Numbered from the stretch's first letter, positions 603-57,564 are shown. The stretch is 64,000 bases of DNA from an uncultured virus (IMG/VR IMGVR_UViG_3300025018_000135) (IMGVR_UViG_3300025018_000135), one strand, 5' to 3'. Made by a program: numbers and translations. Notes: generated from the letters alone by a model not told the origin.

Positions 603-604
603 TT

Positions 605-1033
605 TCACCCCGTCAGTTCGGCGTCGTCCACCATTTTACACAACATTTGTTTAATGAAGTCTTTACTCATTCCTTCGTTGTCTATTTTACAGATTCCATT
701 CTCGTTTTCGGTACTAAAAACAAAACGCCCGAAGCCTATCCCGCTTTGTGCCCATATAAACTCGATACTTTTTATAGGACAACAACGACTTTGAACACTT
801 TTTGGTGTATTGCTTTTTTCTTCTGTGCTTGAAAACCCTCCAGTTAAGTTTCCTGAACTTATCTCACTATCCCAGAAATAAGCAAATGGGCTTTTGCTTC
901 TACTATTTGAAGGACATTTTTTACAAAACCAGTCACCTGCTTTTATTGCGTCAAACTGTTCTTCGTTTAAAGGGGAATTAGAACCCCGTCGTACTTTTTC
1001 TAAAGGGTTTCTGCATTGAGGACAATTAGGCAT
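605..1033 (-). CDS. Hypothetical protein with N-terminal zinc ribbon
   Basis: CPQC...CKKC; tightly packed in a minus-strand gene run. Confidence 0.55.
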   Translation of the reverse strand: MPNCPQCRNPLEKVRRGSNSPLNEEQFDAIKAGDWFCKKCPSNSRSKSPFAYFWDSEISSGNLTGGFSSTEEKSNTPKSVQSRCCPIKSIEFIWAQSGIGFGRFVFSTENENGICKIDNEGMSKDFIKQMLCKMVDDAELTG

Positions 1034-1307
1034 CTTAGTCTCCGATTAATTTAGAATGCTTCAGAATTCTTTTGTAGAAAAAATCGACTTCTTTCTTATC
1101 AAAGATTTTTTCTAGAACTGTTCTGTCTGTCTCCGTTAACAGCTTACTCTTATTCGTTTCTATTATTTTTTCTATAGCTTCTAAACATGTTATAGGTTTT
1201 AGATAAGTCCGCACGTTAGGATACACCTTACCCGGCCTGTAAATTCTTCCTTTTTGCTGATAGTACTCCGTAACTTCAATATCTTTATCTGAGTTGCTGT
1301 CCATAAG

Positions 1308-2027
1308 TCACCTTTGCTTAGTTGGCTGTTTCTTGAAAGACCGATCATCAAATCCTTTTGCGTCTCTCATATCTACGTCTGAAATTTTTTCCATTTCATT
1401 TTCTTTTCTTGTAGACAATACACCATCAAGATACATATAAATTTCTTGGTATGCTGTGTAAGGATCAACTGCTGCCATAAAACTCAAGTCTTTTAGGCAA
1501 GGATTAACTACAATCTTAATAGGTTCCGCACTTTGTACTTTGGAAATCTTAATATGCAAAATAGGAGACTTGTATTTTCTATGGTACTCTGAGAAATCCT
1601 TTTTTGTAATTTCTAGCGCTTCCAAATACTTCTTAGTCCACTCGTTTCGTTTCCTACGAAAACGTTTTCGCATTACAGGTTGGGGCTTTTCTTCACCTCC
1701 GCAAGATGACTCTAAATCGTTAAACGAACTCGGAAAGAAATGTTCAGTGCGTCCTGCAATAGTATCTTGTATATATTTGTTTATGCAGAGATATACTTTT
1801 CCACAAAATAGAACGTAGGAAACGTAGTAGGTCACTTTAAAACGTTTTTCTTTTGTTTCTTCCCAACCGTGCCTAACAAAATGTGAGTTGAAAACTTTCC
1901 AAAGAAATTCATCAAAGTTTTCTTTTTCAACAATGAATTCTTCTTCTTTTCTTTTATACGTAATGCTTTTGTCAATTACGGTTTGAACTTTGTCGTAGTA
2001 GTCGAAGAAATCTGAGATAATGAGCAT
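1308..2027 (-). CDS. Hypothetical phage protein
   Basis: 239-aa ORF with an AGGAGG Shine-Dalgarno site upstream. Confidence 0.6.
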   Translation of the reverse strand: MLIISDFFDYYDKVQTVIDKSITYKRKEEEFIVEKENFDEFLWKVFNSHFVRHGWEETKEKRFKVTYYVSYVLFCGKVYLCINKYIQDTIAGRTEHFFPSSFNDLESSCGGEEKPQPVMRKRFRRKRNEWTKKYLEALEITKKDFSEYHRKYKSPILHIKISKVQSAEPIKIVVNPCLKDLSFMAAVDPYTAYQEIYMYLDGVLSTRKENEMEKISDVDMRDAKGFDDRSFKKQPTKQR

Positions 2028-3944
2028 TCTTCCTCCTTAACACCTATGCTGTATCTAGCTGCTTGTTGCTGCAAACTAATTTTGGTAATAAAATTTAAGT
2101 ATTCGTTTTTCTTTTCCATAACTTTATGAGCCAGTAAAACCATTCCATTACTGCCTGTCCTAATAAGAAATTCTTTGTCTAGTACAAAACCTTTAGCTTC
2201 TGTTACGTTAAATCTATCCTCCATAATGTCTATGATAAAGTACTCTGTTACGTCAGGCTTACACAAAATACCTTTTGAGGATATTATAGAACCGTATTCA
2301 AAGGTAACAGCGTAATCTGAAACTTTGTAAAAACGGGTTTGTTCTGGGAAATCTTCAAAATTTCTTTCTATTCTTTCTCTTCCTGTACATTCCCAATCGT
2401 CAAGTTCTTCGTCTGGTAACAAACGTATAAAAGCAACGGTTCGCTCGTCAATGGCCTTCCCTTCTTCAGGGTGAAATGAATCTGCGTTGGGATAACATTT
2501 TTTGTATTCTTTTCCATCTTTAGTCCTCACATCGTAACACTCTTTAAAACGACTTCCGTCATAGGGAATCCACAAGCCTACCTCATACATTGAATGGTTA
2601 ATCATTTTTCGTCTCCTTAAAAAGTCCTGACCCAAATTGAGAACATAGACAAGATTATTGCAATACATACAGACTGAAAGATTCTCGCCCACATACTTTG
2701 TAAGTACAATAGCGCAATAAATATTATAATAGTTCCCGGTATAGTTGCAAAAAAGAAACCCTGTTTTATTGACGGGTGCAGATGTTGAGAGAAAAGGTAC
2801 ATTGGCAGAGTGTAACAAGCTAACGCAAGAATAAGTGTAAATATCACTTTAATAATACCTAAGTTAACAGAGTAGATAGTCTTTACTAACGGGCCTTTTC
2901 CTTTGTCCCTGTTTCGACAAGCTTCTGCAAGTATTTCTTGCGACACTTGAACTTCCATTGCCGTTGTATAAAAGCCAAGTGTCAAGAGTTGAGTCAAGTT
3001 GTCTACAATACCAACAACGGCTTGTAAAATTCTCATAAGATGAATTTTCAAAGTTGGGTTACGAAGCCTCTCAATATAAATTTTCATGTTAGCCTCTGTG
3101 TTCTGGTACGTATTGAATTACAGGAATACATTCATCTGATCTAGGAATAACAAATTCACACTCTGTTTTTAACTCTAGGTGCTGTAGATAAAGTTTTTCT
3201 GTTACTTTCAATCTTCCGTGCATCACTATTACCATAACAAAAATGCTACCAAAGATGAAAATACCAAGACCTACAAGAGGCCCGTAGTTTTTAGTGTCGG
3301 GGCTGCGAAACGCAACAGCCATATAAATAATAAACAAAACTATAATTAGTACCAAAGCACTGTCACCTAAGTCTACAAAAGTCATTTTTAGTTCCCCATG
3401 TTTCCGGCTAGTTTATTTAGAAAAGGTAGAATAACAAATTCCAGAGCGTTTTGTTTTTGTATATGTTGACGCACTACTTCTTCTTTCGTTATGTGTTCAG
3501 ATTCAGGCTTTCCTGCGTTGTAACAATTAAGAGTCCATTCCATTAAAAATTTATTCGTTTCTTCGCCTTCCGTTAGCAGTCTACTTATGTGAATAGTTTT
3601 TAAGCTAACTATATTTTCTCTAGCGTTTAAAACAACTTCTAGCTTGAAGTCGTTTTTTGTTTCATACATTGCAGAAACTAGCATGTTTAAGTGTTCTAGC
3701 CTTCGCATCAAGGCATGTTCAAGGCTACTAAGTCGTTTTGTGAATAACATAATGCTTTCCTACTCAATCCTAGTTATTATTCTAAAATCAGTTTCTACGC
3801 TTTCCCCCAACTTCAAAGTTAAAACGCGGTCATTCCAAAACCAACGAGTATCCATAGTGCTTCCTTTAATCGTATTTTCACTAGTTAACCAAGAAGGTGC
3901 ATCGGACTCTGAAAAAATTTCTACATCTCTAAAACTTTTATGTG

Positions 3945-4325
3945 TCATTTTGAAACGCATAGTATCCCCTCTACAATATGTTGAAAATACATATTCCAGT
4001 ATTCAGTCGTAAGATATTCTTTACACTCTTCTGCAAAAGTTTTAGACTGGCGATATGGATAAAACCAATAATTCTCCTTTAATGAACAATAGGCCCCATC
4101 GTTTTCTCGTCTAACTCTCTTATACCACATAATACTAGGTGACTCAGCATTCCATGCGTAGGGCATATCCTTATCTAAAATTTCAATTAGAATACAATTA
4201 GAACCAATTTTCAAAATCTTTGCTTTTACTGCCCGCCCAATTTTTCCGTCGTCAAAAACATTTACTAAGTCCCCAACTTTAGGTCGATACTTAACACTAA
4301 GTTTTTTCAAGAGTTCTTTTTTCAT
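3945..4325 (-). CDS. Hypothetical protein (true start MKKELL at 4325)
   Basis: The track ORF extends through the tRNA; the first ATG downstream of the tRNA CCA end is at 4325. Confidence 0.55.
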   Translation of the reverse strand: MKKELLKKLSVKYRPKVGDLVNVFDDGKIGRAVKAKILKIGSNCILIEILDKDMPYAWNAESPSIMWYKRVRRENDGAYCSLKENYWFYPYRQSKTFAEECKEYLTTEYWNMYFQHIVEGILCVSK

Positions 4326-4342
4326 AATAGGCTCAAAATAAA

Positions 4343-4427
4343 TGGTGCGAACGGCGGGACTCGAACCCGCACACCTTTCGGCACTGGAACCTAAATCCAG
4401 AGTGTCTGCCAATTCCACCACGTTCGC
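4343..4427 (-). tRNA. tRNA-Leu, anticodon TAG
   Basis: GCGAACG acceptor stem pairs with CGTTCGC followed by ACCA. D-loop TGGCAGAC, anticodon arm CTGGA-TTTAGGT-TCCAG, long variable arm, T-loop GGTTCGAGTCC, encoded CCA. Confidence 0.96.
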
Positions 4428-4650
4428 TTTTGTTAACTTGGTTTATTTAGTTTACTTAAAATATTTTCAGTGATCTTTATTCTTTTATTTAGTCTCTCTA
4501 TAAAGTCTAAAGGAACTAGTGGAGTAAACTTACTCTTTTTACACGCTGTATCTAGCTTTGTCCAATCTTCGCATAGTCTATCAGACAATTCTTGCCTCAA
4601 TAAGGACACTTCCCCAGTTGTCAGCTCTACTTTCTTAGTCACATTATACC

Positions 4651-5106
4651 TCAGATAAAAATATCAAAGTCTTGAAGACGTTGCCTTACAAAAATATATT
4701 CCTGCGCGTACCGTTTTGCACGGTCTTCGTCTTTAGTCGTAATTCCTTTTATTCTGCTTAGATCGCTGTTGTGTTTAATATCACACGCTTTAACGATAGC
4801 AGACTCTACAGTAGAACAAGCACGTTTGATAAAGTCCTCTCGGGATTCTCCATCGCGTTTCGTTACATACTGAACTGTTCGCAAAACTTTCCAACCGAAC
4901 AAATCCATAATTTGTTTTCGTGTTACGTCTGTATCTTCAATTGTGTCGTGTAAAACAGCAGCGCATAAAACGTCTTCATCTTGTGTAATCAGCATTGCGA
5001 AATTCATTACAGCTAGACAGTGTAGAATGTAAGGCTTACCGCCTTTGTCGAGAACGTCTCTATGAGCTTCAGCAGCGAATGCAATTGCTCTTGATAGTTT
5101 TTTCAT
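4651..5106 (-). CDS. HD-domain (p)ppGpp hydrolase-like protein (Mesh1/SpoT-HD type small alarmone hydrolase)
   Basis: AIAFAAEAH...PYILH...AAVLHDTIEDT...VKACDIKHN matches SpoT/Mesh1 HD motifs. Confidence 0.85.
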   Translation of the reverse strand: MKKLSRAIAFAAEAHRDVLDKGGKPYILHCLAVMNFAMLITQDEDVLCAAVLHDTIEDTDVTRKQIMDLFGWKVLRTVQYVTKRDGESREDFIKRACSTVESAIVKACDIKHNSDLSRIKGITTKDEDRAKRYAQEYIFVRQRLQDFDIFI

Positions 5107-5378
5107 TTCTTTCTCCGTTTCTTTTTAATTTTCAAACCTGTCTTCTTAAATTCAAGGAAATCATTTTGTTCTAGCTTTACGTCTCTCACAGTATCTTTGA
5201 AAATATTCTCAGGCAAGGGCGGTAATGTATCTGTGTTTGTTTTTATAAGACGTTTTTCTTTGTCTTCTGGTACAACAACAGTTGCACCAACATTGGACTC
5301 AGAGAGAACTTTCGCTATAGCTCTCCCTACAGTAAGGCCGCTTCCTATTATTATCACTGTTGGTTTGTCTTTTTCCAT
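5103..5378 (-). CDS. Small basic protein with Rossmann-like N-terminal beta-alpha segment
   Basis: TVIIIGSGLTVGRAIAKVL; C-terminus KIKKKRRKK. Confidence 0.45.
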   Translation of the reverse strand: MEKDKPTVIIIGSGLTVGRAIAKVLSESNVGATVVVPEDKEKRLIKTNTDTLPPLPENIFKDTVRDVKLEQNDFLEFKKTGLKIKKKRRKK

Positions 5379-7394
5379 TTACTAGTCCTCAAAAACTTCG
5401 TCTGTACCTTTGGCATGGGTTTCTACACCAAGAAAATAATTGACGCGACGGGTCACTGTAGCTTTGGACGGAAAAGTAATTTTCTTTCTGCAAATAACAA
5501 AGCTAAAATTGGTTTTGAAAATATAAAGAGATTCTTTTTTTGCTGTCAGTACTCTTGAAGTAAGCTCAAGTTCTTTTTTTGAAACTACGGTTACTAAATG
5601 TGTAGGCATCTTATATTGCACAAAATCTTCTATAATGTCTAAAGGACTGCTCTGATTGTCAATAGCTTCGTCTAGCAAACTTTCTTTTGTAATGCTAAAC
5701 AGAATGTCATAAGTTTTTATAGGGCGATTCGTAAGAGTGAAAATAAACCTATCCAATTTCTGCTTCTTATAAGTTTTATTTACAGTTTTATCAATTTCAA
5801 CAAGTTGTTTTTGATCTTTAAAAGTCAATGAAAAAGTTTTATTTCGCGGATACTTAGGAACACGTTTCATTTTACAAGCTCCAATTTAAGAGAGTCTAGA
5901 GCGTCTTCTTTCGCTATATCATACAAGGCGTCAAGAAAATAGTTCAGTGACTTGACGGTATCTAGCTCCGTCCTTTTATCAAAGTGCATAACACACATAA
6001 CTGTGTTGCCTTCATACACTTTAACGTCGATGAACTGATGCCTTTTGGTATGTTTAACAATAACGTTATTTCTACCGCTCTTCCATTTTAGAAAAACATA
6101 GTCTCCTACTTTCTTGTTGGTAAATCCAATTTCAACGTTACTGCTGTCACAACGAATAAAGTCTTTAATCTGAATCGGAAAGTTTTCATTCATTAAATGC
6201 TTTAAAGTTTCTGTACTTTCGATAAGACGCGAAACTACAGACGCTGTATCAAGATTTTTTCTAATGAAAAGAGTCATTTCTTAACCCTCGTTACGCTCTT
6301 CTTTGTTTTCTTTCCTAGCTTTCATTTTACTTAACAAGTCAGCTCGAAAGTTTGACTCAATTTGCTGCTTTAATTCTAGATTTTCTTTAACCAAGGCAGT
6401 GTAGTGATCCACTATATTACAAGAAGATTTTGCAAGCTCTACTACAGAGTGTACTAAGCTTTCATAATGTTCAATTACGCTATTCAATTTTTTTAAGTCA
6501 TTTCCTACAGCTCCGTGCTGACGGATGTGCGCATCTAAAAGTTTTTTTACTTCAGAAACACTAAGTCGAGTTTTAGACCTAGATGAATTCGCTGCTTCAA
6601 TAACATTACGCACTTCTGTAATGTTCGCTTTTACTTGTTCTGTTATAGAAGGGATTCCCATTTCTAGTTCCTCAAATATACTTCAGGTCGTTAGTTTTAA
6701 TCTTACGGTAAACTTTTTTACAAACAACAATTTCTTCGTAGTATCTAGTGTAAGCTGCGTAGCGCACACGTTTGAATACGAAGAACTCAAAGAACGGGCT
6801 ATTGTGACAAAAAATATCTACCCCTTTTCTAGGACAGTAGCCGAACTGAATGCCGCTAATGTCCACGTAGTTAACTATCATTGAACGAATGATATCTAAT
6901 GGAGAAAAATTATTTCGCCAGCACTTTTCTTCTAGACTCGATTTCTTTACAGCTATTACTATTTTGTATTCGCAGACTTCTTCGTCTGGAAACCTTTTTA
7001 CAATTTCTTTGTGACCAATACCTTGCTTTATAAGTTTACCAAATTTTCTTCTTTGATTAGATTCAAACTGAGGACAAGCATAAGGCATAAAGGATTTAAG
7101 TTTCATTTTACGTTCTCCGGTTTTACTTCAAACACTCGAACAGGGTAATAGTGTCCACATATATTAATAGGTGCCTTAATAAAACGGTCTTCAACTTTTT
7201 TCCATTGGTATTGATAAGGTTCTACTCCGACAGGCGTGTAGAATACGTAACGAATTCCATCAGGACAATCCATGTTGTACTGAAGCATTTCATCATACTT
7301 GTTACTGTTAAAGATGACTCCTGTACCGCTAAGGAGGCCAAGTAAAATAATACCAATGCAGATATATTTTTCCATCTAGTAAACTCCAGTCGTG

Positions 7395-7431
7395 AAAAAA
7401 GGTAGACGGCGTTAACAATCCGTCTACCTTT
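7395..7431 (-). terminator. Rho-independent terminator after HU gene
   Basis: GGTAGACGG/CCGTCTACC stem followed by T6 on the minus strand. Confidence 0.8.
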
Positions 7432-7436
7432 AGTCA

Positions 7437-7916
7437 TTACATCATAGCTGCATCTTTCAATTTTTTCATTGGGCGAGCTTTTACCCGAGTCATTGCAGGC
7501 TTTGCTTTGAATACACAAGGCTCTTTAGTAAATGGGTTAATACCTTTCTTAGCCTTACGCGCCGGAATATCTTTCGTTACTACTTTCAGAACACCCGGCA
7601 GAGTAAATTCGCGCAGACCTTTTTTCATGACACTTCCAAGGATAACTTTTTCCAGCGCCATAATTACTTTGCGAACATCTTTCTTAGGTACGCCTGAAGT
7701 AAGTTCAAGGTATTCATTAAGCTGAGTCTTGGTGAACTTTTCTTTAATCGGCTTAATGTCAAGTGGCTTGCGTGTGCGCGCAGTAGCAACTTTAGTTTTG
7801 GTTGATTTCTTTTTACTACTGGTCTTTGCAACCTTGCTACTGGTTTTGCTAGACTTCTTTTTGGTTTTCTTTTCTACTTCATCTTTCTTGGATTTCTTGG
7901 ATTTAATCTTAGCCAT
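7437..7916 (-). CDS. HU/IHF-family DNA-binding protein with Lys/Ser-rich N-terminal extension
   Basis: FTKTQL...FTLPGVLKV...PARKAKKGINPFTKEPCVFKAKPA...VKARPMKKLKDA (HU arm signature). Confidence 0.9.
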   Translation of the reverse strand: MAKIKSKKSKKDEVEKKTKKKSSKTSSKVAKTSSKKKSTKTKVATARTRKPLDIKPIKEKFTKTQLNEYLELTSGVPKKDVRKVIMALEKVILGSVMKKGLREFTLPGVLKVVTKDIPARKAKKGINPFTKEPCVFKAKPAMTRVKARPMKKLKDAAMM

Positions 7917-8217
7917 GATGTATTTTCCTTATTAACGTTAATAAACAGGTAATTCTTGATACCCTATTAATTTACAGATTTCTTATTTTCCTTTTCCAGC
8001 AAGTCATGTAGTTCCATAAGGGCTGAATTAGTATCCTCAAAGTCTCCCAAGTCCCAAATAGCCCCTCGATTATTGCCATGAATATCAGTCTTACATATAC
8101 GCATAGGCAAATTCCCCTTTTCGTCTATATCCAGTGCAGCTTTAATAGCCTCTACTTTTGTAGGTTTATTAAGGCTTCTATTTACACCGTTTATAAAATA
8201 CCGCACTTCAAACATTT

Positions 8218-8442
8218 TCATCGTCTCCGTACATTTCGATTTTGTTCTTCTTCAAAGAAAGTCGCATGGCTTCCATTACAAAACAATTTTATTTCTCTTT
8301 CTGATTTTTTAAAAGGTTCTCCGCAATAATAGCACTCCCCTATAGGCTTTAGTTTAGGCTGTTCTGTCTTTAAGATTTTTTCTATAGACTGCTGTTGATG
8401 CTTTTGATTAATTTCGTCTGCCCGGTCTGCATCATCTGCCAT
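8218..8442 (-). CDS. TraR/DksA-like small zinc-finger protein
   Basis: N-terminal DDADRA (DxxDxA coiled-coil tip), then CYYC...FCNGSH zinc site; 74 aa, TraR-sized. Confidence 0.7.
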   Translation of the reverse strand: MADDADRADEINQKHQQQSIEKILKTEQPKLKPIGECYYCGEPFKKSEREIKLFCNGSHATFFEEEQNRNVRRR

Positions 8443-9376
8443 TACTGTATTCCTCGTTTTTAATTTTACAGAGCTTCGCGCAAAGTTCGTTAAGTAAACG
8501 CTCTGGTGTTATTTCAATACCATAATGGTAAAATTTAAATGTAACTCGGCTTCCGTAGTTGCCTGCACGTATTTCAAATTGACCGATACCATTCAACTTT
8601 CCGCCTTCTTTGTCGAAAACGTCAAGGACAATAGAACTGTTAGAGCTTTCTGAAAATACTTCTAAAGTATGTTTACCTTCAAACAATTGAAAGGACACTA
8701 CGTTTAAGCAATAAAAAATTGGACTTACCAAACTTTCAGCTCGCTCAAACCTGCCAATAAGTTTAGGACGCAAGTTATCCAGAAGCCTATAGAACCTATC
8801 TGCTATCTGTTCGTTTTTGTCCGACTTATCTTTAAATACCAAGTATACAACTATTAGTAATATAGAAGCTAACAGCGTCCACGTTAGTACTATCAAGTGC
8901 TCTATTTCCATTACAAAGCCTCTAAAGTGTCATTGCTAAGTTTTTTTATTTGCTCTAAGGAAGATTCTACTAAGTTTCTTGCTTCTAGTTCATTAAATTT
9001 TTCTCCTCTGTATTTTTCTGAGCTAACAGGTATCTCCATAATCCTGAACTTGTTTTTATTCGAGACTTTCATCTGAATCACGAACTTTCTATCTTTCTTG
9101 GTAACACTAACTCTTTCAAGTTGCCAATCACCTCTAATTTTAAGATTAAGCTCTACACAGTTAACAAGCATTGCCAGTATAGTCTGTAGGTGAAAAGGTA
9201 CTTTGTGCGCCCTACAATTGCTATACAACCTGACCATATTTTTAGATAAGAAAAAACTTCTTTTGAAGTCTTCGTCTGTTATTAAAAATACCAGTATTCC
9301 TAGTAGAGCTGTAGCAAATGCAAATACACTCATAATCAAAAGGAGTTCTTTCATAGAAGCTACCGTTTTAGTCAAG

Positions 9377-9625
9377 AAAAAACCGAGGGTGCGAACACCC
9401 CCGGCCTACAGTTTAGAGAAAACTAATTCTCACCTATTCATCGGAAAGTTTAAAAACTCAACGATTACACTTCGTTATACTGTAAGGTAACGAAGCCCAC
9501 GATTTGTTTTACAAAGGGTGGCCTCCGCTTTGCAAACAATTTTTCACTACCATGCCGAAGGCAACTCGGACTTTCTCAGAAAACGTGGGGGGTTCTGAGT
9601 TTTAAGTATGTTGCTACCGGGGCTA
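9377..9625 (-). ncRNA. Candidate structured non-coding RNA ending in an intrinsic terminator
   Basis: About 250-nt intergenic gap with several hairpins, end-to-end pairing, a possible pseudoknot, and a CCGGGGGTG-TTCG-CACCCTCGG-T6 terminator. Confidence 0.55.
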
Positions 9626-9628
9626 ACC

Positions 9629-10126
9629 TCACAACATACCTAAATCTTTTCGTTTGTCTCTATACCATTCAGGTGGTTTTCTTTTTGTCCAAGTAGCAAA
9701 CCTTGATTTGTCGTAACAATAAAAATTTTGATACGCCTTTATAGGGTCGGGTTCTCTAAATACCCAAGGCATACATTGCGCAAAAGGTGTTAGACCTATT
9801 CTTGTGTTGAAACAGTTTGCATACTCCCGAGTCGCAAACATGTGACACTTTGTTGTAGATAAGTTTTCCTTTCCTCTTCTGTGAATATATTCGTCACTCA
9901 AATGAAGAAACAATTCACTAAGGTACATAAAATTGTCTGAGGACTTTCTCGCCCATTTTGTAGCAGGATGATTTACGTGCGTTGGTTTATATGGAACTCC
10001 TATTCCTACCAGACTTAAATTAGTACAAATTATTTGAGCATACTCTACTACCATCTTTTTTACATGCTCGTCACAGTGGCTAATAGCTGCACGTTTCGTA
10101 GAAAAAGATAGAACGAAAATATTCAT
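9629..10126 (-). CDS. Pyrimidine-dimer DNA glycosylase / endonuclease V-like protein
   Basis: MNIFVL...HCDEHVKKMVVEYAQ...YKPTHVNHPATKWAR...EY..R signature of the Pyr_excise-like family. Confidence 0.8.
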   Translation of the reverse strand: MNIFVLSFSTKRAAISHCDEHVKKMVVEYAQIICTNLSLVGIGVPYKPTHVNHPATKWARKSSDNFMYLSELFLHLSDEYIHRRGKENLSTTKCHMFATREYANCFNTRIGLTPFAQCMPWVFREPDPIKAYQNFYCYDKSRFATWTKRKPPEWYRDKRKDLGML

Positions 10127-10310
10127 AACATATTATCAGTAATGTCTATGTCAATGTTCTGTCCGTTAGGGCATCTTATTTGCACAACTGTTGTCAGTTT
10201 GTCTTCTGTGAAAAAAGATAGTGTTCTGATTGCCAGAGCCTGACTTTCAGCGAGTTTTTCTGCATCAATCTTAATCCCGACTGAAGGTATAATCCCAATG
10301 CGTTGTTTCA

Positions 10311-10727
10311 TTATACTTCCTCTCGAATTCCGGGTTTGATTCTACCTGTACGCACAATCAAGTCTTGTTGCTGCATAGAGTTTCTTTCTGCTTCTAAAAC
10401 AGCTTTCTTTTTAGCTACCACATACAATTGAGTAGCGTACTTTGGAATTCTTTGAGTTAAATGTGAGAGTTCAAACAGACTAAGTTTGTTATTTTCTAAA
10501 TATTTCTTAGCAAGTGCATTCAGTACAGGAGAGTCTATCCGGTTAAAACCAATTCTGTCATGACCTGCTGCATGGCCTGTTTCTTTTTCTATTTCGTTTT
10601 GAGCGTCGTACAAAACTAAGAGTCCTTTCAGTGCCCACTCTCTGTTTTCGGAAAGCTTTTGTTTTAAAAACTTTACGTATTCTTTTTTCGTAGTCTTTAG
10701 AACATTTGGAAAAGTTGGAGCGTTCAT
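10311..10727 (-). CDS. Hypothetical phage protein
   Basis: GGAGG Shine-Dalgarno site; 138 aa. Confidence 0.55.
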   Translation of the reverse strand: MNAPTFPNVLKTTKKEYVKFLKQKLSENREWALKGLLVLYDAQNEIEKETGHAAGHDRIGFNRIDSPVLNALAKKYLENNKLSLFELSHLTQRIPKYATQLYVVAKKKAVLEAERNSMQQQDLIVRTGRIKPGIREEV

Positions 10728-10735
10728 ATAACCTC

Positions 10736-11083
10736 CTACAAATCTTCTGGTTTTTCTAATGTCAGTTTGTTTATTTCTGATCCGACTTTAAAGTATATGT
10801 CAACCCGTGGCCATCCTGTAGACCTGTCTACGTAATTTGGAGGATTGTTTGTTTCGTCACATATTACTTCAAAGGTATCCCAAGCTTCATTGCTCTTACC
10901 TACTCTGCAATGGTAATTTAACGTATCCAAAAACTTCTTACGTAAAACGGAATCATTGGTACTGCCAGTATTATTTAATACCAATAGACAATAACTAGAA
11001 TTTAACTGAGCCACTGATTGTGTTGTAGCTAGAAATTTACGTTGTTCGTCCGTAAGCATGTTACCCTCACTTTTTTCTTCCAA
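10736..11083 (-). CDS. Stand-alone protein resembling the tail-sheath C-terminal domain
   Basis: NDSVLR...FEVICDETNNPPNYVDR...VDIYFK...EINKLTL resembles the T4 gp18-type C-terminal motif (ND..TR...V.CD.TNN.P..ID). Confidence 0.55.
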   Translation of the reverse strand: MEEKSEGNMLTDEQRKFLATTQSVAQLNSSYCLLVLNNTGSTNDSVLRKKFLDTLNYHCRVGKSNEAWDTFEVICDETNNPPNYVDRSTGWPRVDIYFKVGSEINKLTLEKPEDL

Positions 11084-12012
11084 GGTCTGTCAGATCAGTG
11101 TCGTCCGTAATATATTGATAAGCTCCTTTTGAATATGCAGGGGCTATGCGCATTTTCTTTTTCTCTATTTCTTCCTGCGCCTTCTTTTCACGTTCTAGCA
11201 TTTCACCTGTGTATTTTACAGGTTTTTCCTTTTTAGCTCTAACCAATTTCGTCTTTTCAATAATTATATTCTCGTTTCTCTTTTCCCACGGCTTTACTGG
11301 CAGTAGGTCTTTTTCTTTTTTGTCTGATTTTAGGCAAGATAAAAGGGTGCGTGAATGTACGCACCCTTGTAGTAGGTCATCATATTTCTTTTTCGATTTA
11401 CGCACTGCCGCCGCTTTATTAAGTTTGTCTAGCCTGTCTCTATTTTTCTGTGCTTTGGTCTTCATATAAAGGCTCAAATTTAAATACGTTAACTTCTCTG
11501 TTTGCGAAGTCAAAACCCCAATGAAAAAGATTTCCAAAAACATCAAGCTGTCTAAGAAGTGGGGTTAGGAAAGAAATATTGTACTTAACAAACATAGGAG
11601 CGACTGGAAAATATTTTCTGGATACTAAATCGACGTTTGGGTGTGGCGTTAGAACGTCTCTGTAGAAAGATAGTGTTGTCCTATCTCCAAAACTTTCTAC
11701 GCTTTTCACAAAACCAAATATCCGTATTTCGTTTTCGTCTTTATGTGACATTACTAAACGATCAAATTCCTCAGATGTAATAGGCTTTCCATTTCTACTG
11801 GGATAATAAGAACACTTGTTAGAGTTGTTAAGTGTTATAATAGCAGGAAACAAAAGAACATCGTTCCCGTCTTTAAATACTATAGTCTTGTTGTTCAAAA
11901 CGATATCGTCGTCTACTGTATTTTCAGACCCTTTAAGCTTGTAAGTTGTGTGAACGTCTTTGACAAAAGATAAAAGACTCATAGGTAGCCCTCCTAGATT
12001 CGAGCCTTGCGA

Positions 12013-12558
12013 TTAAACTTCTACAGAGTATTTAATCGCCCAGATTTTTTTGTTATCAAAATAGTCCTTTTTATCAGCGTCCTCAAACTGAGACAAAAAC
12101 ATGTCCGAAAAATATAAACTGCCATTATTATCATTCATTATGTCTACAACAACATCTTTTTCTTCTGTCTTTAAAATAACGCGAGCTAGTGAATCATTTA
12201 TACGATCAAAGAATTCGTCTTCCTTGTCTTCTGTGATAAAGTAAATAGATAGAATTCTCCTACCTGCACCTTCGCGTGTACTTGTTCCAAGAACTAAAGA
12301 ATCAAAAATAATTTCCGAAGTTGATGCTTCTCCATAAGCTTCACTAAAGTTCAATGCAGCCTCAACTTCATCCTCGTTTTCAATTGTCAGGAATTCTTCT
12401 ATACCTTCATCTTCTAATTCAATTATTTTTTCTTTATCTGGCAGCTCTTTCGCCAAAGTTAAGTCTTCATCTTCCACAGTGTCTGTATTATTGAAAACGA
12501 ATACAGACACTGAGTAGATTTCGTTTAATACGTTATCAATAGCTACGTCAATAGACAT
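12013..12558 (-). CDS. Highly acidic hypothetical protein
   Basis: Dense Asp/Glu throughout. Confidence 0.55.
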   Translation of the reverse strand: MSIDVAIDNVLNEIYSVSVFVFNNTDTVEDEDLTLAKELPDKEKIIELEDEGIEEFLTIENEDEVEAALNFSEAYGEASTSEIIFDSLVLGTSTREGAGRRILSIYFITEDKEDEFFDRINDSLARVILKTEEKDVVVDIMNDNNGSLYFSDMFLSQFEDADKKDYFDNKKIWAIKYSVEV

Positions 12559-12567
12559 ACATCATCC

Positions 12568-12849
12568 TTATTTATTAGGTTCCATACTAACTTCATACCT
12601 TCCTTTAATTTCACGAACAAGGAAAGCACCTACAGAGGAAGACTTCATCATTTTTACAAAAACTTTTTCAGGCACGTCTGAATAAACGTAGCGGTCTTTC
12701 AAGTTAGACTTGAAAAGAACATACAGCAGTTTGTTGTCTAGGTTATATGCCACTGAGTCCAGATTAGAACTTTCACAGTTTGCGAAAACAGTCCGTTCAT
12801 CGTTATCTAGTTTCATTTTCATATTATTAAAAACAATTCGCTTACTCAT
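12568..12849 (-). CDS. KTSC-domain protein
   Basis: ESSNLDSVAYN...LYVLFK...YVYSDVPEKVF..MMKSSSVGAFLVREIKGRY. Confidence 0.9.
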   Translation of the reverse strand: MSKRIVFNNMKMKLDNDERTVFANCESSNLDSVAYNLDNKLLYVLFKSNLKDRYVYSDVPEKVFVKMMKSSSVGAFLVREIKGRYEVSMEPNK

Positions 12850-13645
12850 AGTCTTTCTCCACGGAAGCTGCTTGTGCGTCTGTTATTGGCATGTCTTTGT
12901 ATTTACTATCAGGGTGGCGTTCTAGGTAAGAACGTTTCTGATTCTTTGACATAGAGTTCCACCATTTTTTATCTTGTTGTGTTATAGTGGTTTGGCTCTT
13001 GTCGTTCTTTTCCATTAGTTGTTCTTTCTTCTTTTCTTCTTGTGCTTTTTTCTGTTTAATTACCGCCTCTTTGTCTGCTTCTGACATAAACTCAAAAGAC
13101 TTACCTTTTTTCAGAGTAGAAAAATAAGGCCCAATATTTGTCGGCCTCCAACGGCCTACACTAAAAGCAGTACCTTTAGCAGGGCCGTGATAAAAAACTA
13201 AAAAGGCTTCTTCTGAATCGTGTTTCTTTAAAAGAACACTGTCTTGTTTGAATTTCTTTGCGGCTCCTTTTAAAAAGGAATCTAGCTGTTTATTACCATC
13301 ATCAGTTTTGTCGCCAATGACAATAAAAGATTCTTCATCTACTACTTTTTCTTTGTCTGTACCTTCATTTTCAATATAACGACCTTTCACTTTAATAAAG
13401 CCATAACCCGCTTTACGAATCATGGCTTTTAATTCTTCATTTCGTTCCCTGTTCTCCTTTAGGGAATACTCACCACGAAACGCAGTGAGTGCCCCTATAT
13501 TTCTTTCTTTTGAGTGTTTGTAAATACGCCCTAAACTAGCGGCGGTTTCTTCTTGACCTGTATATGCTCGCACGACATTGGAATTTTGAAAGTAGAAAGA
13601 CAAACTACCTTCTTCTGATATTAATTTCATTTCTACCACTCCCAA
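12842..13645 (-). CDS. Hypothetical phage protein with C-terminal W..MS..Q..YL..HP.S module
   Basis: Long ORF; the C-terminal motif is shared with ORFs at 54410 and 56010. Confidence 0.6.
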   Translation of the reverse strand: MGVVEMKLISEEGSLSFYFQNSNVVRAYTGQEETAASLGRIYKHSKERNIGALTAFRGEYSLKENRERNEELKAMIRKAGYGFIKVKGRYIENEGTDKEKVVDEESFIVIGDKTDDGNKQLDSFLKGAAKKFKQDSVLLKKHDSEEAFLVFYHGPAKGTAFSVGRWRPTNIGPYFSTLKKGKSFEFMSEADKEAVIKQKKAQEEKKKEQLMEKNDKSQTTITQQDKKWWNSMSKNQKRSYLERHPDSKYKDMPITDAQAASVEKDYE

Positions 13646-13791
13646 AGTGTTTAAATGAAATTAGTCTTATTATTTATTTTTTCCAAGTCCGGCAGCTTCC
13701 AGTGCTTTTTTCATGATAGGGTTACTTATTTTAGGCTCTCTCTTTTCTTGTACTTCATTTTTATCATTAGCCACTTGTTTGTTCACCTTTT

Positions 13792-14094
13792 TCATTCTTT
13801 GTCCCCTTTATCAAAAAGTGAAATTGCCTTCTTTGCTTTGGGCGAAAGTGAATAATAAATTGGCTCACCTTCCCCTTTTTTCAAGTAACCCGATTTAATT
13901 GCGTCGTTCAAAAACATACGTGTATAAGTCTTTGAAGCAAACTTACCCTGATCGTGAATTTGAGTATTCGTTAGCATCTTTTTCGGAGCACTATCAATAA
14001 TCATAAAAACTACGATACGACGAATACTTAATTTAGGGTCTTTTTCAGATAAGTCTAAAAGTTTCTTAATTAGTTTATCTTTTTTAGCGTTCAT
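13792..14094 (-). CDS. Probable winged-helix DNA-binding protein
   Basis: SKTYTRMFLNDAIKSGYLKK...YYSLSPKA has a wHTH-like pattern. Confidence 0.5.
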   Translation of the reverse strand: MNAKKDKLIKKLLDLSEKDPKLSIRRIVVFMIIDSAPKKMLTNTQIHDQGKFASKTYTRMFLNDAIKSGYLKKGEGEPIYYSLSPKAKKAISLFDKGDKE

Positions 14095-14143
14095 GTTCGT
14101 CTCCGATTATGGCGGGTATATTTCAACCCGCCGTTAATCTTAA

Positions 14144-14992
14144 TTACTTAACAAACAAAAGATCGCCAAAAGAACTTTGCTCAGATTCACCTGAAGCACT
14201 TCCGTTAGTTCGGAAAAGTGATTCATCAATTGCAGTACGTGAACCCGGCGACCACTTTGCAAAATTAATAGGAGAGTTTCGCGTAACAATACGGAAACCA
14301 TTCCCTACCAAAAACGACACCATACTTTGAGAAATTGTCGAAGAGTCTGCGAGAATAGCCAGATGCCCATTCTCTTTAGCGCCTTGAATTACTTCAAACA
14401 GTTTTCCGAGGTCGTTTCCAATTTCTTCTTCACTTACGTTACCAAAACTTACTTTTACCATGGTTGTCATGCAGAGTTCAGCAAAAGAAGACTCATTTTG
14501 GACGTTGGCCCAACCTTCTACTTTTACAAAGTCTGAAAACTTTTTATTAATACCGGGAATTTCACTTTCACCTAGTTCTCCCGTTTCTGCTTCGGCAGTT
14601 ATGGTAATAGGCTCTTTAACAATTTCATATTCCTGATCGAAGGGAAATGCACCGGACACTTCCATAATTAAAGGTTTAACAAAACCCGCCAGAGCATTTG
14701 TATTTTTAGCAAGTTTAGCTCCTGCCACCAAAAGCAATTTGTGACTATTGTAAGGATTACTAACAATTCTGCTAATTACGTCTTTAACGCTTTGACGGAA
14801 AACACCCGGAGCAGTTTCTGCGTCTTTTTTGCTGGCTTTTTGAAACGGGTTATAAAGGTCGAACTGTTTACCATTTTCCGCAGTAACTTTCCGCGCCTGC
14901 ATTCTTACCGCGTCTGAATGTTTAGTCACCATATCCAGAACAACGACAACTTGCGAGCGTACTTGGTACGGGAAGGTTTGTACATTTTCCAT
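14144..14992 (-). CDS. Hypothetical protein
   Basis: 282-aa ORF with GAGG Shine-Dalgarno site, preceded by the AATCTGTAAAGTA motif. Confidence 0.65.
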   Translation of the reverse strand: MENVQTFPYQVRSQVVVVLDMVTKHSDAVRMQARKVTAENGKQFDLYNPFQKASKKDAETAPGVFRQSVKDVISRIVSNPYNSHKLLLVAGAKLAKNTNALAGFVKPLIMEVSGAFPFDQEYEIVKEPITITAEAETGELGESEIPGINKKFSDFVKVEGWANVQNESSFAELCMTTMVKVSFGNVSEEEIGNDLGKLFEVIQGAKENGHLAILADSSTISQSMVSFLVGNGFRIVTRNSPINFAKWSPGSRTAIDESLFRTNGSASGESEQSSFGDLLFVK

Positions 14993-15037
14993 TTTCTATT
15001 ACCTCGGTATATTGATAGGGTTTGGGCTGACACCTGA

Positions 15038-15050
15038 TACTTTACAGATT
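15038..15050 (-). promoter_or_regulatory. Putative phage promoter motif AATCTGTAAAGTA
   Basis: Identical 13-mer also at 33622, 41751 and 44703, each just upstream of a co-oriented gene start. Confidence 0.65.
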
Positions 15051-15055
15051 TAAAT

Positions 15056-15958
15056 TTAGGCTTTCTTTAATTTCTTTTTTACGTCTTTATTTTCTTCAGT
15101 ATTCTCCTCTAAAAGTTTTCGTATTTTAGACCAAGGCTCTGACAGTTCTACTAGGTCTTTAATAACCTCTTTGATAGGTAGGTTTTTCTCAATAGCCTTT
15201 TTAACTAAAGCTTCCTGCTTCTTTTCAAGCTTTAATCTCTTTTTACGCTCTGACTCGGCAGCCTTATCTTTTCTCCTACGTTCTTCTATTACAGCTTTTT
15301 CTTGTTTTGCTCTTAGTGCCTTGGCTTCTTTTTCTCGTTCCGCAAGAATACTTTTTATTTCCACGACCGCTTGTTTGAACAGGACTACTCGAATATCGCG
15401 TTCTCTCTCAGTTTCCCTGTGTTCCACGTCAAATCGAAGATTACCTCCGTGATTATCGTAAAACCGAAATATAACATTTGCTTTGGGATTTTCATTCTTC
15501 AGTTTGACCCACTCGTCACGAATGCGAAACGAAAGAATTTCAGGCGTCCTTTCCGCAACAGATAACTTTAAGTTCTTAATCTGTTTTCTTTTTTGCAAAG
15601 AGCTTGCTTTAGATAGCATGACACCTTTTGAAGCTGCAATTTTTTCAAGGTATATGAAAATATTACAAATATCCCAAGCATATACTTTAGTAGATAAGCC
15701 ACGTCTGTAATAAGGATACTTAAACCCGTCTACTCCTACAAAACTATTCTTTTTACCAGAACCGAACAATTTCAAAGCTATCTTTTTAGCTTCTTTCTCG
15801 GCTAGAGTCGGAACCCCTCTGTTATCTCGTTTGAACTTTGCACTCATTTTATTTCTCCAAGTTATTTTCAGTCTTTGTGCATTTTGGTGAATCGTTTTAT
15901 CTCTTTCGGCAATTGAGACAAAGCCATCGGCAACTGCAATACTTCTCTGTCTTTGCAA
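15056..15958 (-). CDS. Basic coiled-coil hypothetical protein (true start probably MSAKFKR)
   Basis: Long K/E-rich ORF; GGAG Shine-Dalgarno site before the internal ATG. Confidence 0.55.
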   Translation of the reverse strand: MQRQRSIAVADGFVSIAERDKTIHQNAQRLKITWRNKMSAKFKRDNRGVPTLAEKEAKKIALKLFGSGKKNSFVGVDGFKYPYYRRGLSTKVYAWDICNIFIYLEKIAASKGVMLSKASSLQKRKQIKNLKLSVAERTPEILSFRIRDEWVKLKNENPKANVIFRFYDNHGGNLRFDVEHRETERERDIRVVLFKQAVVEIKSILAEREKEAKALRAKQEKAVIEERRRKDKAAESERKKRLKLEKKQEALVKKAIEKNLPIKEVIKDLVELSEPWSKIRKLLEENTEENKDVKKKLKKA

Positions 15959-16894
15959 TTGGCGCAGTTGAAAGTTACTTCTTGGCCTGTTGTAGTTGAA
16001 CTAATATGAGGAAAATTTTTGTCCTTCATTACACTTACTCCTTAATAACCAGTAAAGGGAACAGAGTCCACGTCGTATTCAATGCTACCATCTTCTTTTT
16101 CAAAACTCTCTACACGAATCGGGTATTTAGACTCACGTTCAAAATAGCAGCACGTTTCGTCCCGAAACTCACCTTCGCCTTTTTTGAACTTTTCCGTGTA
16201 CAATTCTTTTTCTTCTTCAGTTACACGCCACCTTTCAGTTTGTTCTTCTTCAAACTCTTTTTGTAGTTTAGAGAGTTCTTCGTTTAATTCTCGAAACTTT
16301 GAGGGTTCGCACTCAATGCGTTTTTTAATCTGCTTAATCCTAAATAGTGTTTTGTGCATTGCGTTTCTCCAAAGTAATCTGTTCGAGGGTTTTCGGAAAC
16401 CAGTAGCAACTCGTATTCAAGAAAATAAAACGTCCGTATTCACAGTCTTCTTTTTTCGCAAACCCTGTTACTTTAAGTCCGCGAAAAGAAACTCCATAGT
16501 CGTTAGTGAAAGTTACAGTGTCGCCAACTTTTAAGTCACAGGGAAATGGCGGTTCTTTTTCCAGAGTAGAAACTAACTCGTCAAAAGTTTTCATGATATA
16601 GCCTCTCTAGCTCTTTTTCTTTTTGCTTCCGCAGTTAGTCGTAAACGAATTGCCATGCCTTCGCCAAAAGAACGGCCAGTATATTCACGACCATTAATGC
16701 GAGCATAAAACTGAGTCATGTGCGTACCGATATAACTTTTAACGCGCCAAGTAGAACCTTTTGTTGCACTCCCTATTACAGCACCATTAAAGTCCACAAT
16801 GTCGTAACTAGAACCAATGATACCTTCGACACCTATACCGTTTTTTCTGCATTTTCCAACGTAAGCACAGATTTCGTTTTGCATTGTTTTATCC

Positions 16895-17302
16895 TCAATC
16901 AAGAAAGGCTTGAATTTCCACCGTTAAAAACTCAGAAGGGTTATCGTAAACAAAGTTCCGAAGTTTATAAAAACTTTCAATCATTTTTTCTTTAGACGTA
17001 GGTTCAGTCAGACCCCAACACAAATCGTTCATCATTTTCAGCATTAAAGCAGCGCCGAAAGTTTTTGCATCCATATTTCCAGAATAGTAATTGTCTGAAC
17101 AGGAAACTTCGTAGTCGTTTTCCGGTGGTACAACAAACACAAAACCATTCTTTTCAAAAACCGTCCACAGACCACCAGAATAATTTTTTGCGTATTCACC
17201 TGCCATAGTAAATAAGCGATTTTCAACAATTCGCATACTAGTGTGGAATTCCGTAAGGAACAGGGCTTTCTTCAAATATTCAGAGTTCATTGCAGTAGAC
17301 AT
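16895..17302 (-). CDS. Antirestriction protein, ArdB/KlcA family
   Basis: ENRLFTMAGEYAKNYSGGLW...NYYSGNMDAKTFG...FYKLRNFVYDNP matches the KlcA/ArdB pattern; GGAG Shine-Dalgarno site before ATG 17302. Confidence 0.8.
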   Translation of the reverse strand: MSTAMNSEYLKKALFLTEFHTSMRIVENRLFTMAGEYAKNYSGGLWTVFEKNGFVFVVPPENDYEVSCSDNYYSGNMDAKTFGAALMLKMMNDLCWGLTEPTSKEKMIESFYKLRNFVYDNPSEFLTVEIQAFLD

Positions 17303-17552
17303 AGTTATCTCCAAGGGTTTATTTGCACTAGCGTAGCAACTCCAAAGAATTGCTACTAACTGCAAACCTACACAAAGTCTTCCAGATTAACTTCCTGAAA
17401 GGTTCCTGCACCTACACAAACAAAAACACGCGGAGGTTGATTCAATTCACACAAAGCATGAACAACCTTTACGGCTTTTGCCATGTTATTAACTTGACTT
17501 GAAAAATTAATACCACCAATGTTAATGCGAATTTCAACCCGTACAGTATCCA

Positions 17553-17798
17553 TTATTCTTCCTCCGAGTTTTTCCAAAGTTCTTTCCATTCTTCAGGAGT
17601 AATTCCGCTTTTCAGAAACTCCCGTTCCTCGTTGCTCAGTTCAGGAAAAACATCCTGAATTGAACCACCTTGCTGCCAACGGTAAACTTGCATTTGTGTA
17701 ATGGGCAAGTCCATCGTATTTTCTTTACCGCTGATCGTAGAAACTTTTTTAACCAGCATCTTGTTCTCCTTAAAAACCAAATTCAACTGAAAAACCAA
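17553..17798 (-). CDS. Small phage protein
   Basis: S.ISGKENTMDLPIT...IQDVFPELS.EEREFL.SGITPEEW, a pattern I recognise from unannotated phage proteins. Confidence 0.6.
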   Translation of the reverse strand: MVFQLNLVFKENKMLVKKVSTISGKENTMDLPITQMQVYRWQQGGSIQDVFPELSNEEREFLKSGITPEEWKELWKNSEEE

Positions 17799-18324
17799 TC
17801 ACGTCGTTACTGAAGGATACTTTATTTGCATTGCCCATAGACGTTGGCAAATAAGATACCCTAGCAGCTATTCTTTCGTTGCCTACTTTTATTTCAAAAG
17901 CCGCCGCAGGTAGAACAGGCATTCCAGTAGCGTTCTCATAACCTGTAATTGCGAAAACACTACCACCAAAAGAAAGGTAGTCAAAAACTTTTACCGGAAT
18001 TAAGTCTGATACTTTCTTTTCATAATAGAACCCGGCATAAACTGAGGTTTTATTAAAAGAGTTGTCGTAGAACCCGAAGCTGTAGCCTACATTTTTTAGT
18101 TTTGTAGGAAACTTTACATAAAGTCCGAAGTTTTCTTCGTTAAGATTGGGAGCGTAGACCTTGCGTAATTTTTCACGGCCCCAAAAGTCTTCATATTTTT
18201 TATATACAAAGTCCTTACCGTTAATGTGCTTACTACCAACATGTACACCAACTTTAATTTCATTTTCTTCTGCGTGGACAAAAGACACACAAGCCAAAAG
18301 AATAAAAAGAAATACCTTTTTCAT
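17770..18324 (-). CDS. Secreted PagP-like outer-membrane beta-barrel protein
   Basis: Signal peptide MKKVFLFILLACVSFVHA; NEENFGL, FYDNSFNKTSVYAGF; C-terminal beta-signal GFSVEFGF. Confidence 0.65.
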   Translation of the reverse strand: MKKVFLFILLACVSFVHAEENEIKVGVHVGSKHINGKDFVYKKYEDFWGREKLRKVYAPNLNEENFGLYVKFPTKLKNVGYSFGFYDNSFNKTSVYAGFYYEKKVSDLIPVKVFDYLSFGGSVFAITGYENATGMPVLPAAAFEIKVGNERIAARVSYLPTSMGNANKVSFSNDVIGFSVEFGF

Positions 18325-57443: not shown

Positions 57444-57446
57444 CTT

Positions 57447-57562: not shown

Positions 57563-57564
57563 TT

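Follow-up and report, generated by a model that had tools for sequence, protein, structure and literature searches.

The locus

The viral genome IMGVR_UViG_3300025018_000135 of IMG/VR comes from an uncultured phage and was examined over a stretch of 64,000 nucleotides (nt), hereafter the window. Almost all genes between ~600 and 41,700 are carried on its minus strand. Between two of them, one encoding a protein assigned to phrog_624 and the other a small protein with a hydrophobic N-terminus, lies the gap (9376-9628) that is the subject of this report. A preliminary description, made from the sequence alone, had proposed that this gap holds a structured RNA with a pseudoknot, possibly a novel phage non-coding RNA (ncRNA), ribozyme, or attenuator. 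Our analysis tentatively favors a minus-strand, terminator-ended ncRNA of ~250 nt, a reading that we place a little below an even chance. The coordinates of the features discussed are collected in Table 1.

On the minus strand the gap was found to be non-coding, as the preliminary description had held. The sole minus-strand open reading frame (ORF) encodes 24 amino acids (aa) from a TTG start (9539-9465), and the plus-strand ORFs within the gap encode 26-33 aa. TAA, TAG, and TGA all interrupt every frame, and therefore no stop-codon reassignment would rescue coding. Since such ORFs do exist, a small protein encoded by one of them could in principle explain the region, but they begin with TTG or GTG, show no clear Shine-Dalgarno sequence by eye where nearly all genes of this phage have one, and span less than a third of the gap, and those on the plus strand oppose the direction in which the whole region is transcribed. 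We regard a small protein as a most improbable explanation.

The gap is also G+C-rich. The GC content reaches 0.46-0.47 at 9501-9650 versus ~0.29-0.39 in the flanks, while that of the window is 36.6% and the other short gaps of the window are mostly AT-rich (0.24-0.39). The earlier statement that the element is neither a tRNA nor a tmRNA was confirmed with ARAGORN, which found only a tRNA-Leu gene (anticodon TAG, 4343-4427, minus strand) in the window. This sole tRNA gene overlaps a long ORF call (3945-4421), which is therefore probably spurious.

Table 1. Coordinates of features in and around the gap (positions counted from the first nucleotide of the window)
Feature	Position	Strand	Description
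Upstream gene	9629-10126	-	165 aa; phrog_624, E 2.7e-45
Non-coding gap, candidate RNA of ~250 nt	9377-9628	-	no ORF of at least 30 aa; GC 0.44 vs 0.366 for the window
Downstream gene	8911-9354	-	147 aa; N-terminus hydrophobic; no family
Metatranscriptome contig (run X9)	9431-9620		strand not readable from contig; 190 nt, 100% identical, depth 2.7
Weak sigma-70-like promoter candidate	9633-9660	-	GAGACA-16 nt-TATGTT, 8/12, by eye
H0	9601-9644	-	predicted 13-bp hairpin, one G-U; mean pair probability 0.97
H2	9575-9599	-	predicted; 7 bp, C-rich 11-nt loop CCCCCCACGUU, then AAAGUCCGAG; pair probability 0.95
Stem of H2	9599-9593 / 9581-9575	-	CTCAGAA / TTCTGAG; 11-nt loop CCCCCCACGTT
H4	9504-9539	-	predicted; 12-pair stem, one bulge, loop CGGAGGCCACC; pair probability 0.37
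Stem of H4	9539-9528 / 9516-9504	-	TTGTTTGCAAAG / CTTTGTAAAACAA; 12 pairs, one bulge, one G-U
H5	9470-9495	-	predicted; perfect 8 bp, 10-nt loop; pair probability 0.44
Stem of H5	9495-9488 / 9477-9470	-	CTTCGTTA / TAACGAAG; in sequence
H6	9440-9465	-	small interrupted hairpin AUCG..GAGUU / AACUU..CGAU; in minimum free energy structure
H7	9416-9431	-	predicted 5-bp hairpin GAGAA / UUCUC; pair probability 0.96
Intrinsic terminator	9380-9407	-	11-12 pairs (7 G-C), UUCG loop, U6 tail
12-mer directly after terminator	9366-9377	-	TCTTGACTAAAA
5'-3' complement	9622-9617 / 9404-9399	-	CCCCGG / CCGGGG; in sequence
Complement proposed as pseudoknot	9589-9584 / 9501-9496	-	CCCACG / CGTGGG; in sequence
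Long-range complement	9603-9596 / 9460-9453	-	AAAACTCA / TGAGTTTT; in sequence

Local hairpins and long-range pairs compared with chance

Each of the six complementarities listed in the preliminary description was present in the sequence where it had been placed. The item given there as a TGCC-TTCG-GCA hairpin proved to be a stem of 4 base pairs (bp), TGCC/GGCA, around a loop of 3 nt, for which the pair probability was 0.23. The stems of 9645-9377 were then compared with those of 500 dinucleotide shuffles. The total number of stems is ordinary, as 13 perfect stems of at least 6 bp were present versus 8.6 ± 2.9 in the shuffles, 10% of which reached 13. Local hairpins are enriched: three local stems of at least 7 bp (loop of at most 20 nt) were found versus 0.33 in the shuffles, a number reached in 0.4% of them, and perfect stems of at least 8 bp likewise numbered three versus 0.53 (1.4% of shuffles). 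The three local stems are those of H2 and H5, both listed previously, and of H0, which had been missed.

A thermodynamic ensemble calculated for a 281-nt transcript (9650-9370) predicted a row of hairpins. H0 is built on a perfect 8-bp core (9639-9632 / 9613-9606), with the extended stem in the minimum free energy (MFE) structure. The last codons of the upstream gene form its 5' arm, and its 18-nt loop contains the stop codon UGA (9631-9629) as well as CCCCGG. Over the 64 kb the minus strand has only four runs of six C (C6), one of which is in H2. H4 and H5 are rivaled by an alternative hairpin, AGCGGAG/CUUCGUU, with a pair probability of 0.50, and H4 was present in the MFE structure of the longer transcript and absent from that of the 252-nt transcript. 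In H6, the loop-closing pair is hit by a strain variant (U>C at 9455) that was seen in DNA run X3.

Neither the proposed pseudoknot nor the other two long-range pairs, 5'-3' and AAAACTCA/TGAGTTTT, stand out: each does not exceed chance or conflicts with better stems. A 6-nt complement to the H2 loop arises downstream in 14% of 5000 shuffles, and the pseudoknot between CCCACG and CGTGGG is therefore not above chance. The AAAACTCA/TGAGTTTT pair overlaps bases of H2 and H0, has a pair probability of 0.0001, and would be broken by the variant at 9455, which was seen in one low-depth contig of X3.

Folding of the gap is consistently above average, strand-biased to minus, and not outstanding. The fold energy of the whole gap on the minus strand gave a z-score of -2.47 (0/200 shuffles as good) and, in a repeat, -2.36 (2/200), and that of the plus strand gave -1.51 (17/200). 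When ranked by GC-corrected MFE among 1278 scan windows, the six 150-nt windows of 9301-9700 took places 26-121 (minus strand) and 158-373 (plus strand).

Two other non-coding stretches may be recorded here. The segment 57540-57720, within the convergent junction 57444-57914, was the top outlier of the 1278 scan windows on both strands (fold z -5.83, 0/200 shuffles as good). It contains dense strong hairpins, including a terminator at ~57568-57598 and an 11-bp perfect hairpin, and no Rfam family reached its gathering score there. Downstream of nrdB, at 19052-19261 on the minus strand, is another non-coding gap with a high GC content (0.49). Taken as a whole it folds with a z of only -1.34, and it holds a 15-bp hairpin, one more of the four C6 runs of that strand, and a promoter-like TTGACA-18-TAAACT site at 19110-19081.

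A strong terminator at the end of the gap

The gap ends in an intrinsic terminator in which a G+C-rich hairpin precedes a U-tract on the transcribed strand, with pair probabilities of 0.96-1.0. It is the strongest terminator-like site in 1-20000, and ~220 nt of extra sequence precede it. By eye, the other terminator-like hairpins in the gaps of the window lie mostly in short gaps of ~50-85 nt, with the exception of one, at 57444-57599, that is located ~125 nt into its gap.

The 12-mer that follows the terminator directly recurs, with C at position 6, after a second terminator (11368-11343), at 11328-11339 on the minus strand. In an exact-match scan of the 64 kb, TCTTG(A/C)CTAAAA had only these two matches, behind the two strongest terminators of 1-20000. 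These copies may represent a module in common or an element like a -35 box. The downstream ATG (9354) lies 25 nt past the U-tract, with a Shine-Dalgarno sequence that is weak compared to most genes of the window. No promoter-like site was present in these 25 nt, and the downstream genes would therefore be expressed only by read-through.

An RNA-library contig within the gap and candidate promoters

Part of 8900-10200 was detected in 16 public runs, by which the phage is assigned to aquifer metagenomes; runs X6-X8 and X10-X16 hold small word shares only and carry no weight as to habitat. An aquifer metatranscriptome, run X9, holds 0.11 of the sampled words of 8900-10200. Its sole contig on this 1301-nt stretch lies wholly inside the gap, with nothing on the flanking genes within 8900-10200. 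The DNA runs X2 and X3 cover the flanks too. By our own arithmetic, the chance that a random 190-nt piece in 1301 nt would fall wholly within the 252-nt gap is ~0.06. The X9 contig is a weak but real hint of a discrete, relatively abundant RNA.

A 151-nt contig from a 2024 marine-sediment metagenome (run X7) is 100% identical to 9973-10123, within the upstream gene only in this 1.3 kb. This is unexpected, given that all other sightings of the phage are in aquifer runs.

The weak promoter candidate at the end of the upstream gene scores 8/12, and since the threshold of the scan was 9/12, it is absent from the scan output. It would start the RNA at ~9624-9628, which fits the upper limit of the X9 contig at 9620.

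The phage probably also has a promoter element of its own, the motif TCTGTAAAGTATC, which recurs exactly or with at most two mismatches, mostly in gaps just upstream of genes. Sites were observed on the minus strand at 15036-15048, 33620-33632, 39329-39341, 23489-23501, and 44701-44713, and as a divergent pair at 41.7 kb (41749-41761 on the minus and 41780-41792 on the plus strand). With up to three mismatches allowed, 47 matches were found versus 30.8 ± 5.3 in shuffles.

Search for relatives

Blastn in distant mode of 9300-9700 against 50,697 GenBank phages gave no match, and no paralogue of the RNA was found within the window. The upstream protein had relatives at 48 loci in IMG/VR, with 28-45% identity by best aligned segment and at most 43% where the match spanned most of the protein. 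A further 98 relatives were present in Joint Genome Institute (JGI) metagenome contigs, 80 of which were kept; these reached at most 45% identity near full length and at most 55% on N-terminal fragments. When the RNA was searched against all 128 loci with nhmmer and blastn, nothing was found, the single nhmmer match having an E-value of 4.4. A gap of at least 150 nt followed the homologue in 8 of 44 loci hand-picked from the 128 for enough downstream DNA. In one of these eight (L049) the gap contains an ORF, and the other seven were checked by nhmmer and blastn only. The downstream protein and the clamp loader had no relatives in IMG/VR, and the neighboring gene 10311-10727 gave five weak matches with no synteny.

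Short words fared similarly. The 18-mer CTGAGAAAGTCCGAGTTG had no matches in IMG/VR, and AAATCGTGGGCTTCGTTA had two that share nothing past the 18-mer. The 13 matches of GAGAAAGTCCGAGTTGCC in GTDB genomes were apparently coding and mostly G+C-rich, and none had flank similarity. A pattern of loop plus linker with a free stem had two matches in IMG/VR, both unrelated and apparently coding.

A terminator-ended RNA or a plain spacer

The term phage ncRNA used in the preliminary description appears reasonable, in that the stretch is non-coding and GC-rich, has local hairpins above chance and a strong terminator, and is represented by a contig in an RNA library. We infer a minus-strand transcript with its 5' end near 9620-9628 and its 3' end at the terminator, ~9378. 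The RNA may originate as a leader, transcribed from the weak promoter candidate within the end of the upstream gene, or as processed read-through, that is, the 3' untranslated region (UTR), of the upstream four-gene operon. It would consist of a row of local hairpins, namely H2, H4 and H5 or their alternative, H6, H7, and the terminator, with H0 added on read-through transcripts. We propose that because of these hairpins the terminated product would outlive the flanking mRNA and so accumulate as a discrete species. The terminator would also attenuate, with the downstream small-membrane-protein genes reached by read-through.

A number of results weigh against an RNA of this kind. Without the terminator, the fold energy drops to a z-score of -1.40, with 22/200 shuffles as good, such that the gap cannot be called structured in the strong sense meant previously, and the ranks of its minus-strand scan windows do not place it at the top. 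No promoter upstream of the RNA passes the 9/12 threshold, and no good copy of TCTGTAAAGTATC lies there, the 3-mismatch copy at 9479-9491 on the plus strand being at chance level. The RNA evidence comes from one run only, in the form of contigs only at a depth of 2.7, from which neither strand nor ends can be read, and DNA carry-over may account for the X9 contig. The variants in X3, at 9455 and 9370, fall in or beside the RNA, with none in the ~680 nt of flanking coding DNA covered, and their placement does not suggest stronger constraint in the gap than in the genes. Finally, no homologue was found in GenBank phages, IMG/VR, JGI metagenomes, or GTDB genomes, and therefore neither conservation nor covariation adds evidence.

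Much of this would equally suit a plain spacer, in which the 220 nt before the terminator are a functionless leftover, either a decayed or an acquired fragment, and only the terminator matters. The z-score of -1.4 without the terminator, the chance-level long-range pairs, the lack of a homologue, of a paralogue in the window, and of an Rfam family, the X3 variants, and the single low-depth RNA contig all point this way. Such a leftover would nonetheless have a GC content well above the genome mean where most other short gaps are AT-rich, it would carry local perfect hairpins in an excess matched by 0.4% of shuffles, and the sole RNA-library contig of the 1.3-kb stretch would happen to lie inside it. 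We consider a plain spacer possible, if rather unlikely, and keep the terminator-ended RNA as the favored reading.

Possible attenuation at the terminator

The preliminary description had further suggested that CCCCGG near the 5' end competes with the terminator stem. The complement is present, and its pairing is predicted in nascent RNA, but at equilibrium the terminator wins (p ~1.0). On this basis one may envision a cis-acting ON-type attenuator, either riboswitch-like or an antiterminator dependent on a factor or on translation. In such a device the terminator 5' arm CCGGGGG would be held in a helix with either the 5' CCCCGG or the H2 loop that carries C6, and a ligand, a protein, or a ribosome at the nearby stop codon would stabilize the helix, so that no terminator forms and transcription continues into the downstream genes. 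Upstream of the terminator 5' arm are two perfect 6-nt complements of it, CCCCGG at 9622 and ACCCCC at 9593, versus a shuffle mean of 0.33; two or more occur in 2.7% of 5000 shuffles, although this test was devised after the pairing had been seen. While the 3' arm is still to be made, the predicted partner of the 5' arm is 9622-9617 (p 0.98-1.0) in a transcript starting at 9625 and, in read-through transcripts, the C6 loop at 9592-9587 (0.81) or 9563-9554 (~0.72). The absence of a promoter-like site between the terminator and the next ATG is also in keeping with such control. The competing helix is a weak one, however, with only 6-7 bp closing a loop of ~210 nt, and the terminator prevails fully at equilibrium. 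In addition, no known riboswitch, T-box, or leader family matched, a real aptamer class should be widespread and yet the sequence searches gave no relative, and the downstream genes offer no hint of a ligand. The word attenuator in the preliminary description may thus still apply in view of the two C-rich complements, but we judge an ON-type device of this sort unlikely.

In ON-type transcriptional riboswitches, such as the pbuE adenine riboswitch, the 3' strand of the closing helix is common to the terminator. The arrangement here is alike in that the 3' strand of the closing helix would overlap the terminator 5' arm just before the regulated gene. It differs from the pbuE type in that it has no known aptamer and no conservation, the region enclosed is very long, and none of the downstream genes is related to a ligand. 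We give little credence to the further reading that the gap represents a transcription attenuator of a new ON-type kind, by which a jumbo phage gates the downstream membrane-protein genes. It would entail a ~210-nt sensing domain closed by CCCCGG/CCGGGG, or the C6 loop as a second clamp. The stabilizer might be the ribosome that ends the upstream gene at the stop codon inside H0, a factor of phage or host, or a ligand.

Known RNA families

The preliminary description had called for an Infernal scan against Rfam. This was run with Rfam 15, and at gathering scores only the tRNA-Leu was matched in the window, with no family reaching its gathering score in the gap. Permissive scans, accepting E-values up to 10, were made of 601 bases (9200-9800) and of 271 bases (9370-9640). 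The best sub-threshold match was SpF44, with 20.8 bits versus a gathering score of 70, and on the plus strand. An L20 leader match reached 20.1 bits versus 58.7, and its confidently aligned part is the terminator hairpin with the U-tail. In these scans no RNase P class, ribozyme, riboswitch, T-box, 6S, tmRNA, or Y RNA model was matched, nor any small RNA (sRNA) family, RsaE-like families included.

In RNase P RNA the CR-I segment follows P3 and makes up the P4 helix with CR-V, right after which comes the 3' strand of P1. The segment GAGAAAGTCCGAG of the gap, which comes after a hairpin, had been likened to CR-I. A reduced RNase P-like RNA or a self-cleaving ribozyme that uses the proposed pseudoknot could be imagined, given this resemblance, a possible pairing by eye of AAGUCC with GGGCUU at 9498-9493, and the presence of at least one tRNA gene in the phage. 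As in bacterial and archaeal RNase P RNA, a hairpin is followed by an A-rich, GUCC-containing segment. Unlike RNase P RNA, the gap matched no covariance model at the permissive E-value or at gathering score in the window, and its size and the order of its elements are unfit, with ~90 nt between the would-be 3' strands of P4 and P1; it is not a member of this class. The pseudoknot complement occurs in 14% of shuffles, and no homologues were found. With no backing from the covariance models, the CR-I echo stays no more than a resemblance, and we hold a catalytic RNA to be barely credible. The pseudoknot and the RNase P-like ribozyme of the preliminary description do not hold up.

The layout of a type III toxin-antitoxin system (tandem repeats, terminator, and endoribonuclease toxin gene) was also considered. 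No tandem repeat was found in 9300-9700, no toxin was matched downstream, and the neighboring proteins had no defense-family match; this layout was therefore excluded.

The C-rich-loop sRNAs of Firmicutes, such as RsaE/RoxS and RNAIII, pair through these loops with G-rich ribosome-binding sites. By analogy, the C-rich loops of the candidate RNA, CCCCCC in H2 and GCCCCGG in H0, might act in trans on G-rich ribosome-binding sites in mRNAs of the host or the phage. Runs of at least four C number two in 269 nt, versus 0.875 per kb on the minus strand, and the rare C6 run falls in a predicted loop. Shine-Dalgarno sites are strong and G-rich in most genes of the window, and the terminator would supply the 3' end of such an sRNA. 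Among the 79 translation-start regions of the window, the best predicted duplex, at -30.6 kcal/mol, was nevertheless no better than those of shuffled RNAs, whose mean best was -31.5 ± 2.1 kcal/mol, with 62% of 60 shuffles doing as well, and the Rfam scans matched no RsaE-like or other sRNA family. A trans-acting, base-pairing role appears very unlikely to us.

The phage and the neighboring genes

The source phage is large, with T4-like replication and nucleotide-metabolism genes. The window encodes NrdA, NrdB, a UvsX-like recombinase, a gp32-like single-stranded DNA-binding protein, a clamp loader, SbcCD-like nuclease subunits, a sigma factor, and a primase. Megablast of 5000-15000 against the 50,697 GenBank phages gave no match, and the clamp loader has at most 38% identity to proteins of GenBank phages. 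With the upstream protein, the downstream protein, and the clamp loader as queries, nothing close to the source phage was found in IMG/VR.

Homologues of the upstream gene in GenBank phages are labeled as DNA binding protein or as pyrimidine dimer DNA glycosylase/endonuclease V, and its product gave no match against PDB sequences. The downstream protein had no PADLOC, Pfam, or PHROG match. The upstream gene starts at 10126 with an ATG that has no Shine-Dalgarno sequence, and directly before this ATG is a promoter-like TTGACA-16-TATGTT site (10/12; 10127-10154, minus strand), which could reflect a leaderless start, an internal start, or chance. Elsewhere in the window, two adjacent plus-strand genes of ~100 aa (49905-50222 and 50233-50541) have an identical 25-nt upstream sequence, GACTTAAAAGACTGAGGGAAATAAA, which suggests a tandem gene duplication.

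Relation to described phage RNAs

The gap RNA is probably an orphan example of a kind already described, the terminator-ended phage ncRNA or leader. The closest counterparts come from ONT-cappable-seq of six virulent Pseudomonas phages, which yielded 29 ncRNA candidates derived from 5' UTRs, 17 of them in the jumbo phage phiKZ, with abundant species of ~120 and ~210 nt seen on northern blots (PMC10914365). Like the candidate described here, these are short non-coding transcripts within a gene cluster of a lytic, in part jumbo, phage, with an intrinsic terminator before the next gene, and they are 100-250 nt long and belong to no known family (PMC10914365). They accumulate relative to mRNA, as the candidate RNA would. 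Their ends were mapped and two were examined by northern blot (PMC10914365), whereas the evidence here is one low-depth metatranscriptome contig. UTR-derived phage ncRNAs are recognized in part by having no ORF with a canonical Shine-Dalgarno sequence, and on the minus strand the gap has only the 24-aa TTG ORF, for which no clear Shine-Dalgarno sequence was seen by eye. There is no sequence relation between the two, and the source phage here is uncultured.

A functional precedent is found in the lambdoid phages, where StxS is the Stx-phage form of the short PR'-tR' leader RNA (PMC7547250). There too a short RNA arises from a stop at a strong terminator before a gene block that needs read-through, and StxS indicates that such a by-product can itself be regulatory (PMC7547250). 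In the lambdoid phages the PR' promoter is strong and known, the Q antiterminator sets read-through, and the RNA is shorter; in our case no promoter passes the scan, there is no known antiterminator, and the phage type is unrelated.

For now, the gap RNA is an orphan candidate with no family or covariation, and it offers little to build on yet. If real, it would extend by one the still short but lengthening list of terminator-ended ncRNAs from large lytic phages; its source is a groundwater phage, uncultured and without close relatives, and there is a hint of expression in situ. The finding would gain weight should the C-rich segments prove to compete with the terminator as a regulated switch, because control of read-through by RNA has been little explored in jumbo phages.

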